Notes under the pieces: generated by a model
Databases searched by the model: none
What the model saw: the letters and a program-made list of their open reading frames with translations, nothing else
Told to the model about the DNA's origin: nothing
Position numbers and translations under genes: made by a program
DNA from: Methanomassiliicoccaceae archaeon
GTDB taxonomy: Archaea > Thermoplasmatota > Thermoplasmata > Methanomassiliicoccales > Methanomassiliicoccaceae
Direction: 5' to 3'
Assembly: GCA_040776945.1 (NCBI GenBank)
Contig: JAXGZN010000002.1
Location: 832,001-896,000 of the forward strand
Length of the DNA: 64,000 bases
Shown here: positions 2,962 through 19,538 of the stretch, piece after piece
Numbering within the stretch: the first letter of the stretch is position 1
How the letters are laid out: each line of letters begins with the position of its first letter

Positions 2962-4346
2962 TTGACGCCCTCCGAGGTGTCCTGCAGCTCCACGCCGCTC
3001 TCCTTGAGGCGGTCGCGTATCTTGTCCGCGAGATCGTACTGCTTCCGCTTGCGGAGCTCGTTGCGGACCTCGATGAGGATGTCGATGATCTCGCCGGAAC
3101 GGTCCTCCTTGACCTCTGGCGCAGATGGAAGAATGCCGAACACCGAGTCCATCTCCTCCAGCGCCGCGAGGATGTCATTGGCCCCCTGGGCGCCCAGCTC
3201 GCCGGCCGCCAGCAGGCGGTTGGTCTCCCGCACCAGCTCGAACACCTCGGACATCGCCGCCCGCGTGTTGAAGTCCTGGTCCATGGCATCCACGAACCGC
3301 CTGCGGAAGTCCGCTGCCAGGTCGGCGGCGCCGCTTCCAGGCCTGGCGCTCCGGGCCACCGCCTTGAGCTCATGATATGCGTTGTGCAGCCTACGCAGGC
3401 TGGCGGCGGCCTCCTCCAGCGCGGCCTCGGAGTACACCTGAGGGCCGCGGTAGTGCGCAGACAGCACGTAGAAGCGGACCTCCTCCTTGGTGTGCTTCTT
3501 CAGAACGTCCTTGACGGCGAAGAAGTTCTTCAGCGATTTGGACATCTTGGCGTCCTGGACCTGGAGCATCCCGTTGTGCACCCAGAACCTCGCCAGGGGC
3601 TTGCGGTTGGCCGCCTCGGACTGGAGGATCTCGTTCTCATGGTGAGGGAAGATCAGATCGTTGCCTCCGCCATGTATGTCGATCGTCTCCCCAAGATAAT
3701 CGGTGCACATGGCCGAGCATTCGATGTGCCATCCCGGCCGGCCCTTGCCCCAAGGTGAGTCCCATGAGATCTCCCCAGGCTTGGCGGCCTTCCACAGCGC
3801 GAAGTCGTACGGGTTCCTCTTCATCTCGTTGACCTCGACCCTGGCCCCGGCCTGCATGTCCTCCAGCCTCTGCCCGGTGAGCCGCCCATAGTCCTCTACC
3901 GCGTCCACGGAGAAGTACACGCTGCCGTCCTCGCTCTGGTATGCGAAGCCCCGGTCGATGATCCTCTGGACCATGGCTATGATCCCGCCGATGTTCTCCG
4001 ACGCCTTGGGATATGCGTCGGCACGGCGGACCCCCAGGGCGTCGATGTCCTGAAAGTACCGCTCGATGTACATCTTGGACAGGGCAAGGGGGTCCATGCC
4101 CATTTCCGCCGCGCGGTTGATGATCTTGTCGTCCACATCGGTGAAGTTGGTGAGGTGCGTAACCTCGTACCCGCGGTAGCGCAGGTACCTGGCGATCATA
4201 TCGAAAACGATGATCGAGCGCGCGTGGCCCATGTGGATGTCGTCGTAGACGGTGACGCCGCAGACGTACATCTTGACCTTGCGGTCGTCGAGGGGCACGA
4301 ACTCCTCCTCGCGCTTGGTGAGCGTATTGAACATTCTCAGAACCAA
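2940..4346 (-). CDS. cysS: cysteinyl-tRNA synthetase
   Basis: YVCGVTVY, HMGH (HIGH), GRPGWHIECSAM, HGGGNDLIFPHHENE, KMSKS. Confidence 0.97.
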   Translation of the reverse strand: MVLRMFNTLTKREEEFVPLDDRKVKMYVCGVTVYDDIHMGHARSIIVFDMIARYLRYRGYEVTHLTNFTDVDDKIINRAAEMGMDPLALSKMYIERYFQDIDALGVRRADAYPKASENIGGIIAMVQRIIDRGFAYQSEDGSVYFSVDAVEDYGRLTGQRLEDMQAGARVEVNEMKRNPYDFALWKAAKPGEISWDSPWGKGRPGWHIECSAMCTDYLGETIDIHGGGNDLIFPHHENEILQSEAANRKPLARFWVHNGMLQVQDAKMSKSLKNFFAVKDVLKKHTKEEVRFYVLSAHYRGPQVYSEAALEEAAASLRRLHNAYHELKAVARSARPGSGAADLAADFRRRFVDAMDQDFNTRAAMSEVFELVRETNRLLAAGELGAQGANDILAALEEMDSVFGILPSAPEVKEDRSGEIIDILIEVRNELRKRKQYDLADKIRDRLKESGVELQDTSEGVKWKRTAS

Positions 4347-4379
4347 ATTATCCCGTCCTGCTAATGGGCCGGTGCCTCA

Positions 4380-5024
4380 TTAACCTTTTTTTAGCTTATC
4401 CTCGAGCGAGGCAACGCGGCCCTCCAGGCGCTCGATGGACCTGCTTATGTCATTGAGAACGTTAACGACCGGATCTGGCAGGTTTTCCACCCGCAGCTGG
4501 GGGACCGCTCTCTCGCCGTTCCTTCGCACGATCTTTCCCGGTATTCCGACCACAGTGCTGTTGGGCGGCACATCCTTGACCACCACCGATCCCGCCCCGA
4601 TCTTAGAGCTCTCTCCAACCACGATGTCTCCGAGCACCGTGGCGTGCGCCCCGATGATCACGTTGTCCCCTATGGTCGGATGCCTCTTCTCCTTAAGAGT
4701 GGAGACACCCCCCAGGGTCACGCCTTGGAAGATGGACACGTTATCGCCTATGATGGTGGTCTCCCCGACCACCACGCCTGTTGCGTGGTCTATGAAGAAC
4801 CCTTTGCCGATGGTCGCTCCGGGATGAATGTCGGCGCCGGTGAGCACCCGGGCCCAATAGTTGAGCAGTCGGGCGAGCTTGTACTCACCCTTCATGTAGA
4901 AGCGGTGCGAAAGGCGATGGATGAGGATGGCATGAAGGCCGGGACTGAACATCAGGGCCTCGGAGAACGATTTCGGCGCCGGGTCACGCTCCAGCACCGT
5001 CCTCACGTCATCTTTCCAGGACAT
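4380..5024 (-). CDS. cysE: serine O-acetyltransferase
   Basis: RDPA, DIHPGA, FIDHATGVVVGET, GVTLGG, KRHPTIG hexapeptide repeats. Confidence 0.96.
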   Translation of the reverse strand: MSWKDDVRTVLERDPAPKSFSEALMFSPGLHAILIHRLSHRFYMKGEYKLARLLNYWARVLTGADIHPGATIGKGFFIDHATGVVVGETTIIGDNVSIFQGVTLGGVSTLKEKRHPTIGDNVIIGAHATVLGDIVVGESSKIGAGSVVVKDVPPNSTVVGIPGKIVRRNGERAVPQLRVENLPDPVVNVLNDISRSIERLEGRVASLEDKLKKG

Positions 5025-5140
5025 GGAGAACGATTGTGAATATCTCAGTGGGGTTTAATGTTACTGTCGACCGTGCGGCCGATCATAGACATAGGGAACG
5101 ATTAATAGCCCACTCGCTTCTTCCGTGCCCTGTGGCGGCC

Positions 5141-5728
5141 ATGAACGAGGTCCTGAAGAACATCTACGAGCGGCGTTCGGTGCGCTCCTATGCCGAGAAG
5201 AGCGTTCCTGAAGAGACGGTCCGGGAGATCATCAAGGCCGGGTTCCATGCCGCCAACGGAGTGAATGCCCAGGGGCTGAGGTTCGCGGTGATCACCGACC
5301 GGGCGAAGCTGAAGACCTACGCCGAAAAGGCCCGGGTGATGTCCCTCATCGCCTTCCAGAGGTTGAACGAGCAGCGGCCGAGCGAGGCGACCTCCAGATT
5401 GATCAGGTCCCTCTCCAACCCAGAGAACGATATCTTCCACGGCGCTCCGGCCGTCGTGTTCATATTCACCACCCCCGCCTGTCTGACCCCGGTCGAGGAC
5501 GCTTCCCTGGCCGCGGGGAACATGATGCTGGCGGCCAGGAGCCTAGGGCTCGGAAGCTGCTGGATCGGCTTCGCCAAGAGCCTGGGCGGTGACCCTGAGT
5601 TCGTGAAGGAGATGAACGTACCCGGGGACCATTCCCTGGCGGCCTCGTTGATCCTCGGCTATCCGAAGAACGAGGGATCGAGGCCATCGGTACGGGACGA
5701 GCCGAAGATCCTGGGCTGGTTGAAGTAG
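5141..5728 (+). CDS. nitroreductase family protein
   Basis: RRSVRSY, NMMLAARSLGLGSCWIG, LGYP. Start reset to ATG 5141. Confidence 0.92.
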   Translation: MNEVLKNIYERRSVRSYAEKSVPEETVREIIKAGFHAANGVNAQGLRFAVITDRAKLKTYAEKARVMSLIAFQRLNEQRPSEATSRLIRSLSNPENDIFHGAPAVVFIFTTPACLTPVEDASLAAGNMMLAARSLGLGSCWIGFAKSLGGDPEFVKEMNVPGDHSLAASLILGYPKNEGSRPSVRDEPKILGWLK

Positions 5729-15359: not shown

Positions 15360-16982
15360 TCACCTCTTTGGCGGCGATTCCTCTATATGGATAGGCGAGT
15401 CCGCGTCCGACTCGCAGGTGTCGTGCTCGTGTGGCCTCTTGGCGTCCGGGGGCAGGGGCGGCTCGCGGCCGACCTTGCGCAGATAGTCGTGAATGGCCTC
15501 GTGCAGCGCGTCGGCCGCCAGGTTGGAGCAGTGCATCTTCTGCGGCGGCAACCCGCCGAGGTTGTCGGCGACGTCCTTCCTGGTGATCTTCAGTCCCTCC
15601 TCGAGGGTCTTGCCCTTCGCCAGGTCGGTGACCATGCTGCTGGTGGCGATGGCCGCCCCGCACCCGAAGGTCTTGAACTTGACGTCGATCATGATGTCGT
15701 CCTTGACCGAAATGTATATATACATCATATCTCCACAGTTGTGAGTCGTAAAGGAATCAGTCACAAAGGAATGTTGCCCTGCAATCTCAAAATTGTAGAC
15801 CTTGCCTGTGAAATACTTTGTTTCGATCGATGTGATGGGGGTATAAAGATAGCCATCTTCAATCCAAGAATGGTCTTTTTGTCCTCCGGCTAAGGCACAA
15901 TCCATCTCTAATATTGCACAAAGCTTTTTCAGAGAGCTGCGGTCCCCTACATGTATGCGGTATGCCTCACTGTGGGAAATGCCCTCCATGAGCGAACCTT
16001 TCTCCTTATATACTGAGGGGATTATCCCTTGCCTAAGAAGAAGAGTCTTGATCTGACCAGCTAACTGTTCGGATATTGTTACGTAGCCCCCCCGGGAGCC
16101 TTTCCTTTCAAGATTGATATATCCATCTCCCCTCCATAGTCCCTTGAGCAGGTGTGTCTGCTTCTCGGGCGGCAGGAACAGCAAAAAATCAGGGATATGC
16201 TTATTCGCTGCCCCACTACCAAATAACGATTCGAAGAACCTTGCTAGCTTGGGTTTATATGTATTCACGCATGCAACATTCTGGTGGTCACGGGGGGTTA
16301 TCGAAGCCTCGATTCCAAACAATGAGCGAATACAGTTCTGAACATCTTGATGATATTCGCTCTCATCAAGGTTGAAAGAGAAGCAAAGATGTCCTCTTCC
16401 ACCCACAGTAACAGTGTTCCCCTCAGACAGATAGTAGCCAGCAAGCCTCAGGAAATCCTCATTTATCTTGATACGTTCGGGCAGAGCGTACCTGTCTTCA
16501 GCGGTGGTTCTTAGGTCAAGAGGCATTTCGAAGAACTCCTGGTCCTTGGTCACCTTCAGGATGGGATAGACGGCGATGTCCCGGCGTCCCAGGTCGCTGA
16601 CGTGGTGCCATTCGGGCCTGAGCTTCTTCTTGTGCCTGGTGTAGTTGTACTTGTGCTGCTCCGGCCTCTTGACCGCGAGCACGAGGTGCTCCGGGGTCAT
16701 CTCCACCGTGCCTAGTTTGTTCTTGAGCCGGACGATCGGGCCGCTGTAGTCGCGCACCGAGCGCTGCTCGACGGTCGAGTACACCCCCTCGTGGGTCAGG
16801 ACCCTCTCCTTGACCGGAACGTCCTCGATGCGTTGATAGTGATTGTTCAGCTGGACCAGCGTTCCGCTGACCAGGCACACTGGGTTCCCGACCTGCCCGA
16901 TCCCATCAGCGTCGGGTATCTCTCCCACATTATGGGGGTTCGTGAAATGCTCCATGACCTTCTCAGTGTACGGTGGCGACAT
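15360..16982 (-). CDS. iscU: Fe-S scaffold IscU/NifU interrupted by an intein
   Basis: Exteins: YTEKVMEHFTNPHNVG..GNPV | CGDMM..FKTFGCGAAIA..LPPQKMHCSNLA. Lies downstream of iscS. Confidence 0.95.
   Translation of the reverse strand: MSPPYTEKVMEHFTNPHNVGEIPDADGIGQVGNPVCLVSGTLVQLNNHYQRIEDVPVKERVLTHEGVYSTVEQRSVRDYSGPIVRLKNKLGTVEMTPEHLVLAVKRPEQHKYNYTRHKKKLRPEWHHVSDLGRRDIAVYPILKVTKDQEFFEMPLDLRTTAEDRYALPERIKINEDFLRLAGYYLSEGNTVTVGGRGHLCFSFNLDESEYHQDVQNCIRSLFGIEASITPRDHQNVACVNTYKPKLARFFESLFGSGAANKHIPDFLLFLPPEKQTHLLKGLWRGDGYINLERKGSRGGYVTISEQLAGQIKTLLLRQGIIPSVYKEKGSLMEGISHSEAYRIHVGDRSSLKKLCAILEMDCALAGGQKDHSWIEDGYLYTPITSIETKYFTGKVYNFEIAGQHSFVTDSFTTHNCGDMMYIYISVKDDIMIDVKFKTFGCGAAIATSSMVTDLAKGKTLEEGLKITRKDVADNLGGLPPQKMHCSNLAADALHEAIHDYLRKVGREPPLPPDAKRPHEHDTCESDADSPIHIEESPPKR
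15738..16877 (-). mobile_element. 380-aa intein with LAGLIDADG homing endonuclease
   Basis: Block A CLVSGT, block B TPEH, LAGYYLSEG and LKGLWRGDG motifs, block F VYNFEI, terminal HN followed by Cys+1. Confidence 0.95.
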
Positions 16983-18153
16983 TGTAGTCCACTCCCTCCC
17001 TCAGCGGTGACATCTTCCTCAGGTTCTCTACTATCGGCCCGATGGTGGTGATGAACCTTTCGGCTTCATCCATAGTATTGAACTTGCTCAGCGACAGGCG
17101 CAGCGATCCATGGCACTGCTCGTGCCTCAGACCGAGGCTGCGCAGCACGTGCGAAGGCTCAAGGCTCTTGGTCGAGCAAGCCGAGCCGGTGGAGGCGGCG
17201 AAGCCCTTCATGTCCAGGTGCAGGATCATGCCCTCGCCCTCGATGTAATCGAACCGGAAGTGGGCGTTGTTGCACAGGCGCTTCTCGCCCCGAGGTCCGT
17301 TGAGATAGGAGCGAGGGACCGAGGCAAGCGTTCCCTCTATGAGCCTGTCGCGTATGCGGGACATATTGGCCACGCTTTCCTCCATCTCAGCCATCCCGAT
17401 CTCGAGCGCCTTTCCCAGGCCAACTAGCCCGGGGACGTTCTCCGTAGAGGACCGGAGCCCTCGCTCGTGTCCTCCTCCGTAGATCAACGGCCGCAGCTTC
17501 ACCCCCTTCCGGATGAACAGAGCGCCCACGCCTTTAGGACCGTGGGCCTTGTGCGCCGATAGCGAGAGCATGTCGACCTTGAGCTTGGACAGGTCGATCG
17601 GGACCTTGGTGATCGCCTGGACGGCATCTGTATGGAACAACGCCCCGCCCTCTTTGGCAACCTCTGCGAGCTCCCTGATGGGCTGAATGGAGCCGATCTC
17701 GTTGTTCGCTGCCATGATCGAGACCAGCGTCGTCTCCTTGGTCAAGGACTCCTTGAGATCCTCGATGGACACCAGGCCTTCGGCATCTACCGGAAGGTAG
17801 GTGACCTGGAACCCCTGGGTCTCCAGGAACTGGCAGGTGTGCAGTATGGCGTGATGCTCAACCATAGAGGTGATGATGTGACGGCCTCTGGACGCAAGAG
17901 CGTACGCGGCCCCCTGCAGTGCCAGATTGTCGGATTCCGTGCCGCCGGACGTGAAGATTATGTCCCTTGGCGAGGCCCCCAGGGCCTTGGCGGTCCGCTC
18001 CCTGGCTAGCTCCATAGCATCGTAGGCGTCCCGGCCGAAGGAGTGAAGGGAGGATGCGTTGCCATAGCGTTCAGTGAAGTATGGCAGCATCTCCTCCAGG
18101 ACCCGGGGGTCCACCTTAGTGGTGGCGCTGTTATCGAAATAGACCTTGTCCAT
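16963..18153 (-). CDS. iscS: cysteine desulfurase IscS/NifS
   Basis: YFDNSATT, FTSGGTES, HTDAVQ, SAHKAHGPKG, STGSAC. Confidence 0.95.
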   Translation of the reverse strand: MDKVYFDNSATTKVDPRVLEEMLPYFTERYGNASSLHSFGRDAYDAMELARERTAKALGASPRDIIFTSGGTESDNLALQGAAYALASRGRHIITSMVEHHAILHTCQFLETQGFQVTYLPVDAEGLVSIEDLKESLTKETTLVSIMAANNEIGSIQPIRELAEVAKEGGALFHTDAVQAITKVPIDLSKLKVDMLSLSAHKAHGPKGVGALFIRKGVKLRPLIYGGGHERGLRSSTENVPGLVGLGKALEIGMAEMEESVANMSRIRDRLIEGTLASVPRSYLNGPRGEKRLCNNAHFRFDYIEGEGMILHLDMKGFAASTGSACSTKSLEPSHVLRSLGLRHEQCHGSLRLSLSKFNTMDEAERFITTIGPIVENLRKMSPLREGVDYNVATVH

Positions 18154-18326
18154 CTGCTCACCTTTCAACCTCGAGGACATATATCGGATGGATATAAATA
18201 ACAATAGTTAAATCCATTCCGGATGCCCTCATACAAGATGGACCACGGTGCTGGTGGATAAAAAGGGTTTTCCTTCCGGGAGCGGCACAGGCTGAAATAT
18301 GCGGAAGCGGAATACGAGGGCTGCCC

Positions 18327-19538
18327 ATGGACGTCGAACGGTTGCGCATGGACTTTCCGCTGTACTTAGGTCCGGAGCGGGACCTCATCTATCTGGATAA
18401 TGCCTGTCAGTCGATGAGGCCCAAGCAGGTAATAGACGCTATCTCCGAATACTACACTGATTATCCGGCGTGCGGGGGTCGATCCGTTCATCGGCTCGCC
18501 ACCAGGGTGGCCGTGAAGATCGAGGAGGCCCGTGAGAAGATAGCGGGGTTCATCGGCTGTTCGGACCCATCGTGCATCGTCTTTACCAAGAACTGCACGG
18601 AAGCGATCAATTTGGTGGCAAAGGGGTTTCCATTCCGCAGAGGGGCGGCCGTGCTTACAACGGACATGGAGCACAACAGCAATCATGTCCCCTGGCTCCA
18701 GCTCCAGGCAGATGGAAAGATCAGACATCGGACGGTTAGGACCCCGCCCTCCGGGCTCTTCGACCTTGAGGCGTACGAGGAGGAGCTGGCCGAAGGAGCG
18801 GACATGGTCTCGATGGTCCACACCAACAACGTCACGGGGACCACTTTGCCGGCGAAGGAGGTGATAGAGGCCGCTCACGACCGTAAGGCATTGGTCATGC
18901 TCGACGGAGCGCAGTCGACCCCGCATCAGCCCATAGATGTGGGCCGTCTCGACGTAGATGCGTTCTGCTTCTCGGCCCACAAGATGCTTGGCCCATCGGG
19001 GGTTGGCGTTCTGTACGCGAAGATGGAGGTGCTGGAGAAGATGCAGCCCTTGCTCGCAGGCGGAGGCAGCGTAGGCATGACCGATTACGAGAGCGTGGAG
19101 TTCCTGCCGCCTCCAGAGAAGTTCGAGGCCGGCCTGCTGAACTACTCCGGGGTGATCGGTACAGCTGCCGCTGTGGACTATCTCCAGGCCATAGGAATGG
19201 ATGAGGTGGCGGAGCACGATAAACGCTTGAACCGCTTTGTTACCGATGAGGTGAAGGGCATGGACCGGGTTACTTTGCTAGGCCCAGAGGACCCCGCGCT
19301 CCGCGACGGTCTTTTCTCTTTTAACGTCAGGGGGATGACGTCTCACGATGTAGCGATGATCATCGATGAGATCGCCAAGGTGCAGATACGTTCGGGCATG
19401 CACTGCATGCACCCGTTCTTCCGCTCCCGAGGTCTCGACGGATGCGCCCGGGCATCGTTCTACCTATACAATACAGAGGCCGAGTGCCGGAGATTCGTAG
19501 AGGCCCTGGCTCACATAGTGGATATCTTCTCCAGCTGA
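18327..19538 (+). CDS. group II cysteine desulfurase (SufS/CsdA-like)
   Basis: YLDNA, EHNSN, DGAQS, SAHKMLGPSG, RSGMHC. Confidence 0.88.
   Translation: MDVERLRMDFPLYLGPERDLIYLDNACQSMRPKQVIDAISEYYTDYPACGGRSVHRLATRVAVKIEEAREKIAGFIGCSDPSCIVFTKNCTEAINLVAKGFPFRRGAAVLTTDMEHNSNHVPWLQLQADGKIRHRTVRTPPSGLFDLEAYEEELAEGADMVSMVHTNNVTGTTLPAKEVIEAAHDRKALVMLDGAQSTPHQPIDVGRLDVDAFCFSAHKMLGPSGVGVLYAKMEVLEKMQPLLAGGGSVGMTDYESVEFLPPPEKFEAGLLNYSGVIGTAAAVDYLQAIGMDEVAEHDKRLNRFVTDEVKGMDRVTLLGPEDPALRDGLFSFNVRGMTSHDVAMIIDEIAKVQIRSGMHCMHPFFRSRGLDGCARASFYLYNTEAECRRFVEALAHIVDIFSS

Follow-up and report, generated by a model that had tools for sequence, protein, structure and literature searches.

We analysed a 64,000-nucleotide stretch from the genome of a Methanomassiliicoccaceae archaeon (GenBank assembly GCA_040776945.1, contig JAXGZN010000002.1, positions 832,001 to 896,000 of the forward strand; hereafter, the window), in which the gene for an IscU/NifU-type iron-sulfur (Fe-S) cluster scaffold is split by an intein at the first cluster-ligand cysteine. 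In all likelihood this is a genuine class-1 intein, very probably splicing-competent and equipped with an active-looking LAGLIDADG homing endonuclease, that behaves as a selfish mobile element in the only IscU/NifU-type scaffold of the organism, not as a domesticated regulator. The selfish character is suggested by the patchy presence of the intein among close relatives, an endonuclease that is both conserved and exchanged, a co-converted stretch of the extein, and the lack of an endonuclease-free fixed form among the top short matches. That splicing and homing actually take place we infer from established intein chemistry. The choice of insertion site would also suit such an element, because an intein needs Cys, Ser or Thr at the +1 position and the host cannot mutate a cluster ligand to escape.

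The insertion site and the splicing motifs

The two halves of the host protein are easily recognised: Pfam NifU_N matched the precursor in two separated stretches (E 2.3e-42), and the NCBIfam model TIGR03419, "Fe-S cluster assembly scaffold protein NifU", scored 189.3 bits against a cut-off of 187.9. In alignments of the C-extein, its first residue, C416, falls on residue 38 in the solved archaeal IscU 7c8m (E 7.7e-39), on residue 36 in the Aquifex IscU 2z7e, which is cluster-bound, and on residue 37 in the Escherichia coli IscU chains, and these alignments identify C416 as the first cluster-ligand cysteine; the numbering of the ligands is anchored by the PDB variant names D40A and H106A of 7c8m. 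The residues C416, D418, C441, H484 and C485 are invariant in the homologue alignments and match the Cys/Asp/His cluster site of solved IscU. Intein-free orthologues run uninterrupted across GNPx/CGD (here and below, the slash marks the insertion point), and at the DNA level the insertion site, GGNAAYCCNGTN/TGYGGNGAY, is conserved across domains. The first-pass annotation of this DNA had placed the intein between GNPV and CGD, with the first cluster ligand as Cys+1, and had judged the splicing motifs and both LAGLIDADG motifs to be intact; the alignment to solved IscU and the straight-through orthologues bear out the former, and the latter agrees with the key residues being kept in 117-120 of 120 homologues.

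Conservation was scored on an alignment of the query and 119 database homologues (120 rows; a 112-row version is referred to as A1). C36, T96, H99, H414, N415 and C416 are present in every row, and each LAGLIDADG motif retains its acidic residue (E187 and D286) in 117 rows. Little or no variation is seen at further endonuclease positions (K261, Q275, W283, G287, S304, Q310 and R317), and Pfam LAGLIDADG_3 covers residues 275-354 (E 2.6e-13). The Pfam Intein_splicing match is weak (18.3 bits versus a cut-off of 35.8). The sequence features of class-1 inteins are there, namely Cys at position 1, TxxH, His-Asn followed by Cys at +1, and an in-frame insertion with colinear intein-free orthologues. 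Intactness of this degree is far beyond chance, and the comparisons indicate that the endonuclease is under purifying selection. The coordinates of all features are collected in Table 1.

Table 1. Features of the intein-split scaffold gene and its surroundings, in window coordinates
Feature	Coordinates	Strand	Basis and conservation
Precursor gene, NifU_N/IscU-type Fe-S scaffold split by intein	15360..16982	(-)	Single open reading frame, 540 aa + stop; Pfam, NCBIfam
N-extein, residues 1-35, C-terminal GNPV	16878..16982	(-)	Colinear with intein-free alleles
Intein, 380 aa, C36 to N415, class-1 type with embedded LAGLIDADG endonuclease	15738..16877	(-)	Translation, conservation, predicted fold
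Block B, T96-P-E-H99	16686..16697	(-)	T96 and H99 each 120/120
First LAGLIDADG motif, residues 178-188, LRLAGYYLSEG, acidic E187	16419..16451	(-)	G182 120/120, E187 117/120, G188 119/120
Second LAGLIDADG motif, residues 278-288, LLKGLWRGDGY, acidic D286	16119..16151	(-)	W283 120/120, D286 117/120, G287 120/120
Blocks F and G, residues 393-415, end H414-N415	15738..15806	(-)	N397 119/120, H404 103/120, H414 and N415 120/120
C-extein, residues 416-540, start C416-G-D, with C416, D418, C441, H484 and C485	15363..15737	(-)	Alignment to solved IscU
Probable imported low-GC tract (endonuclease domain and C-terminal splicing part of the intein, plus roughly 12 codons at the start of the C-extein)	15702..16526	(-)	GC3 and identity; boundaries approximate, codon 152/153 and near 427
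Scaffold C-terminal tail, residues about 505-540	15363..15470	(-)	
NifS/IscS-type cysteine desulfurase gene, directly upstream of the scaffold gene	16963..18204	(-)	Open reading frame; Pfam Aminotran_5; NCBIfam TIGR03402
Second class-V aminotransferase	18327..19538	(+)	

With these residues in place, splicing would be expected to run through four steps: an N-S acyl shift at C36; attack by C416 with trans-thioesterification; cyclisation of N415, aided by H414; and an S-N shift that would restore GNPV-CGD and hence the scaffold. At the DNA level, the endonuclease would cut the conserved empty site, and repair of the break would copy the intein in; indirect signs of such homing are the conserved target DNA, the patchy occurrence of the intein and the co-converted part of the extein.

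The predicted structure is in keeping with this anatomy. An AlphaFold model built on alignment A1 (mean predicted local distance difference test score, pLDDT, 87.3; predicted template-modelling score, pTM, 0.78) contains a predicted Hint fold, and its best match in a Foldseek search of the PDB was the TliVMA intein 7qsu (E 1.7e-21), further matches being PI-SceI, PI-PkoII, PhoVMA and PI-PfuI. The VMA inteins TliVMA (7qsu/7qss), PhoVMA (7qst) and PI-SceI (1vde/1lws), as well as the archaeal PI-PkoII (2cw7) and PI-PfuI (1dq3), share the same predicted Hint fold and the inserted two-motif LAGLIDADG endonuclease, with Foldseek E values from 1.7e-21 to 1e-14. Sequence identity to these solved inteins is, however, only 10-19%, and PI-PkoII was the only PDB entry matched by sequence alone (E 2.2e-5). 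The hosts of the solved inteins also differ (V-ATPase, DNA polymerase, ribonucleotide reductase), and none of these inteins sits at a metal-ligand residue of a scaffold.

A mosaic intein with an exchanged endonuclease module

The G+C content of third codon positions (GC3) is 0.88 in codons 36-160, 0.49 in codons 161-415 and again 0.88 in the C-extein, compared with 0.79-0.85 in the neighbouring genes; the low-GC stretch extends into approximately the first 10-12 codons of the C-extein. The same division is seen in a comparison with a sister allele (P0004), to which the N-extein is 97% identical, intein residues 36-155 are 96% identical, the endonuclease domain 63%, the C-terminal splicing part 72%, and the C-extein 99%. 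Identity falls off exactly at residue 153, where the N-terminal splicing lobe meets the endonuclease domain. At the nucleotide level, identity to a genus-mate (G051) is 89% in the N-terminal part of the intein, 63% in the swapped block, where 49% of synonymous third positions are identical, 81% over codons 416-427 of the C-extein, and 96% over its remainder. With such similarity around a diverged intein core, the exteins are clearly under constraint.

These patterns are best read as gene conversion from a lower-GC intein allele, which would have swapped the endonuclease module together with the C-terminal splicing part, carrying along a short piece of the 3' extein by co-conversion. Co-conversion of this kind is a hallmark of repair during homing. 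The comparisons indicate that the exchange of the endonuclease module in this lineage is recent.

Alternatively, the mosaic of composition and identity could be an assembly chimera made of reads from two organisms. Many relatives are metagenome-derived, and the conserved exteins could bridge contigs of different organisms. We rejected this alternative as scarcely credible: contigs of other runs cover the breakpoints with zero differences (X15, 15653-17030; X17, 16146-16849), a 2001-nt stretch is present at 0.99-1.00 of sampled words in 16 runs of seven studies (digesters and sludges) and partly in four runs of an eighth study, and the genome was assembled in two contigs. As a separate observation, one X17 contig of a related organism joins position 15744 to position 16528, i.e., the module boundaries, with the 783 nt between them unaligned and only 47 nt on one side; this contig may represent an allele with a different endonuclease module.

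Patchy presence in the genus and order

We surveyed 151 genomes sampled from the Methanomassiliicoccales, calling an IscU intein at E<1e-70. A NifU_N gene was found in 119 of them, and the IscU intein in 12 (G000, G029, G033, G035, G037, G051, G060, G063, G066, G075, G078 and G094); within the genus of the window's own organism, 6 of 11 genomes carry it. Intein-free alleles of 160 aa, with the same distinctive C-terminal tail, occur in close relatives (P0135, 88% identity, and P0137), and the Methanomassiliicoccus luminyensis protein (P0143) is likewise intein-free. No endonuclease-less mini-intein was found among the top short matches, which are gene fragments or intein-free alleles.

Spread across archaea and bacteria

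In a search of protein clusters built at 90% identity, 1058 matches were found at E<=1e-3 within a range of 297-945 aa. All of the best 120 of these 1058 combine NifU_N with LAGLIDADG_3 and have the same HN/CGD junction. Their database names are "nitrogen fixation NifU-like protein", "iron-sulfur cluster assembly scaffold protein", "hypothetical protein" and, once, "WhiA"; among these best 120 matches, none is named intein-bearing by its source.

For a species-level view, an alignment of the intein only (A3, 11 rows) was searched against one genome per species, which gave 114 relatives; the best 80 were kept and their hosts were sorted by parsing the junctions. IscU is interrupted at the same site in 63 of these best 80 loci. 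The archaeal carriers among the 63 belong to the Methanomassiliicoccales, other Thermoplasmata, Methanomethylicota, Nitrososphaerota and many DPANN lineages, together with metagenome-assembled genomes (MAGs) labelled Methanosarcinales. The bacterial carriers are Patescibacteria, or candidate phyla radiation (CPR), namely Saccharibacteria, Nealsonbacteria, Paceibacterota, Falkowbacteria, Sungiibacteriota and Gribaldobacteria. The first-pass annotation had called IscU an unusual host and had proposed a search for the intein across archaea. The species-level search shows the same-site insertion to recur in many archaeal and bacterial phyla; thus, IscU is unusual in that it is absent as an intein host from the literature searched, but it is a common host in sequence data.

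A quick maximum-likelihood tree (IQ-TREE) was built from 72 inteins. Left out were L127 (X residues), L138 and L154 (stops under the coordinates used), L152, L155 and L160 (partial or masked), and L171, L174 and L175 (other hosts). All nine Methanomassiliicoccales inteins in the tree group together in a single clade (support 100). CPR and DPANN inteins are intermingled: well-supported branches force at least 5 and at least 6 label changes, which points to transfer of the intein between domains, although the labels of MAGs may be in error. Two IscU inteins, of a Woesearchaeota MAG (L106) and of a MAG labelled Methanosarcinales (L108), are near-identical (tree branches of 0.036 and 0.076), and this likeness reflects either transfer in the very recent past or an error in binning or labelling.

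Is the intein still active?

Several observations weigh against an intact, homing element and are considered here together. First, all 16 runs that hold the complete stretch were flagged as possible sources of the DNA, and therefore the independence of that evidence rests mainly on study P8. Second, the block-F position is usually Asp in inteins, and here it is Asn; since Asn occupies this position in 119 of the 120 homologues as well, it appears to be a family trait and no lesion. Third, frameshifts are present in four of the 12 intein-bearing IscU genes of the order survey: G029 (L095), G063 (L091), G066 (L088) and G078 (L093). Those of G066 and G078 share one position in the C-extein, immediately ahead of VKFKTFGCG, and the G029 gene is broken twice, with two intact intein-free IscU genes kept nearby; the frameshifts may represent decay or sequencing error. 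Fourth, a SufB-like gene is also present in the genome, so that IscU may not be indispensable and Fe-S assembly as a whole may not depend on splicing. Fifth, in the reads and contigs of four public runs we found no intein-free allele of the same strain and no joint skipping exactly 1140 nt, which says nothing about absence of such an allele but leaves ongoing homing in this population without support. Joints skipping 1237-1631 nt were also considered as candidates for an intein-free allele and rejected: these are single contigs of low likeness, read as IscU genes of other organisms.

Some of these facts would also fit a dead insertion, in which splicing has been lost, leaving the scaffold gene in effect a pseudogene and Fe-S cluster assembly to a SufBC-type system alone. 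The SufB-like gene, the frameshifted relatives and the broken gene of G029 beside its intact intein-free copies are what this account would lean on. It is nonetheless very improbable for the copy in the window. Its 540-aa frame is intact, every catalytic residue is kept, the exteins are nearly identical to those of the sister allele, the C-extein is 72% identical (Foldseek) to the Archaeoglobus fulgidus IscU of the solved IscS-IscU complex (4eb5_C), and the gene overlaps an intact NifS-type gene, which is consistent with co-transcription. The overlap amounts to 20 nt between the 3' end of the desulfurase gene and the start of the scaffold gene. The genome (2.17 Mb, two contigs, 99.84% complete) contains one NifU_N gene, the intein-split one, and this, together with the overlap, implies that a working ISC/NIF-type scaffold would require splicing. 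A splicing-competent selfish element thus remains the reading that we prefer for this gene.

Could splicing act as a switch?

A further possibility, raised by the first-pass annotation, is that splicing serves as a conditional switch: a C36-C416 disulfide, or a metal or cluster bound to the C-extein, would block splicing and so control whether a strict anaerobe can mature its only IscU scaffold. Both C36 and C416 are Cys in all 120 homologues, and hence a disulfide trap is possible; this is a necessary condition but an insufficient one. The whole ligand set (C416, D418, C441, H484 and C485) lies in the C-extein, and therefore the precursor could in principle bind metal using the +1 nucleophile. 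The scaffold gene is the only NifU_N gene of the genome, and the mycobacterial SufB intein is reported to sense oxidative and nitrosative stress.

Conversely, the distribution speaks against a fixed regulator. The intein is patchy in the genus (6/11) and in the order (12/151), with close relatives such as M. luminyensis lacking it, i.e., it is not retained lineage-wide, and the top short matches include no fixed form that has lost the endonuclease. The endonuclease is conserved and was apparently exchanged recently, as expected for a mobile parasite. The other Cys residues of the intein are poorly kept (Cys at position 355 in 88/120 and at position 412, where this copy has Thr, in 62/120), and relatives of the intein occur in many unrelated hosts. 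We therefore consider the switch unlikely; a redox or metal switch is pure conjecture, and one that the distribution disfavours, although conditional splicing as a by-product of the Cys residues at the two junctions may be compatible with a selfish element. The chances are low that the precursor stalls on metal or cluster binding, or on a C36-C416 disulfide, such that the iron-sulfur, zinc or redox status would feed back on the maturation of IscU.

Related inteins in other hosts

Among the best 80 species-level loci, 14 have the intein in the beta subunit of a 2-oxoacid:ferredoxin oxidoreductase, before the last Cys of WCPG/CGD (L158, L159, L161-L170, L172 and L173; the Pfam check was made on L161 only). 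These inteins are 30-36% identical to the IscU intein, come from Bipolaricaulota, Fraserbacteria, Levyibacteriota, Aenigmarchaeota, Micrarchaeota and others, and form a separate clade (support 100) in the 72-row tree. Two loci of Patescibacteria (L174 and L175) have the intein in the CHC2 zinc ribbon of DnaG, before its last Cys (KCFG/C), with the ending GN instead of HN, and one locus of Pacearchaeota (L171) has it in a thioredoxin-reductase-like protein, before the second Cys of the redox motif CAT/C.

A second intein is present in the same genome as the window (G000:C1, L177:1534-3666, (+)). It is 27% identical to the IscU intein and lies in a 710-aa radical S-adenosylmethionine (radical-SAM) protein, where it immediately precedes the third Cys of the cluster motif CX3CX2C, with the ending CN instead of HN. 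The related inteins in the oxidoreductase beta subunit, the DnaG zinc ribbon, the thioredoxin-reductase-like protein and the radical-SAM protein are thus 27-36% identical to the IscU intein and all immediately precede a conserved Cys in a functional motif rich in Cys, whereas their hosts differ. No obvious report of inteins in these hosts was found in the literature listing searched for ferredoxin oxidoreductase inteins.

An IscU gene of an Armatimonadota MAG (L014:4001-5440) contains a 358-aa intein at 4169-5242, 28-30% identical to that of the window, at a second site of IscU: it lies directly before the second cluster-ligand Cys (FKTFG/C...HN/CGAAIA), and the first site is empty. Pfam matched a split NifU_N and LAGLIDADG_3 in this gene.

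We also considered whether the intein belongs to a family specialised on Fe-S or Cys-ligand sites, and this was ruled out by the diversity of hosts at the level of clusters at 50% identity. With the intein alone, 7421 relatives were found at this level at E<=1e-3, and 220 at E<=1e-30; the hosts among 15 of the 150 listed matches include phage portal and terminase proteins, a DNA methylase, a glycosyltransferase, and UDP-glucose dehydrogenase, MptE-like, radical-SAM and SufBD proteins. The matches indicate that the wider intein family is not tied to Fe-S proteins. The NCBIfam model NF045703, "tetraether lipid synthase Tes, intein-containing", matched precursor residues 163-416 (E 2.8e-18), which points to a related endonuclease and C-terminal splicing part, but the match is far under the cut-off (65 versus 1700 bits) and the host differs. 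No intein-aware NCBIfam model for NifU/IscU matched, and NF045703 was the only intein-aware model touched by the precursor.

Neighbouring genes and the scaffold tail

The gene overlapping the start of the scaffold gene matched TIGR03402, "cysteine desulfurase NifS", with 548.5 bits against a cut-off of 530.75. Beyond it, the second class-V aminotransferase listed in Table 1 is divergent from the nifS-nifU pair; its nearest relatives are SufS/CsdA-type cysteine desulfurases, with scores below cut-offs. The C-terminal tail of the scaffold (35 aa) is rich in Pro and acidic residues, contains the His/Cys patch PHEHDTCE, and is common to the intein-bearing and intein-free alleles of close relatives while absent from most homologues. 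In the AlphaFold model, the C-extein tail is of low confidence (pLDDT <50 for residues 512-540).

Comparison with published inteins and significance

In the full-text literature searched (including searches on Methanomassiliicoccales, DPANN and cluster assembly scaffold), no paper came up that describes an IscU or NifU intein; InBase and the supplements of intein surveys were outside that search. Among the matches listed, co-occurrences of intein with IscU or NifU appear to concern purification tags or the SufB intein. The main text of the Novikova 2015 intein survey, the portion of that source covered, has no occurrence of IscU, NifU, Fe-S or iron-sulfur. The IscU intein would accordingly be a standard intein in a host new to the searched literature, and it may have been catalogued earlier in InBase or in supplements.

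The closest comparison is with the intein in Mycobacterium tuberculosis SufB, which likewise interrupts a core protein of Fe-S cluster assembly and whose splicing reportedly responds to oxidative and nitrosative stress. One SufBD-core host (P0314) is found among the relatives of the IscU intein. SufB is, however, the scaffold of the SUF system, whereas here the host is an ISC/NIF-type scaffold, and the insertion site differs as well. Unlike in the SufB case, the +1 nucleophile of the IscU intein is itself a cluster ligand.

The finding adds a metabolic, non-replicative host, the ISC/NIF-type Fe-S scaffold, to the intein catalogue, and IscU has two insertion sites, each directly before a cluster-ligand Cys. 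The element occurs widely among anaerobic archaea and among DPANN and CPR lineages with their small genomes, unflagged in annotations. Fe-S pathway inventories of such genomes can be misread, because the annotation says "NifU-like", "hypothetical" or even "WhiA" and sometimes truncates the genes. With its clean module swap and co-converted stretch of extein, the gene offers a compact natural case of how inteins and their endonucleases turn over. For specialists, the interest would lie in the breadth across DPANN and CPR, the two ligand-Cys sites in IscU and the clean module swap. If splicing were redox- or metal-sensitive, this would offer a directly testable link between inteins and Fe-S homeostasis, and it would mean a post-translational control of ISC-type Fe-S assembly common to the methanogens, DPANN archaea and CPR bacteria that carry the intein.

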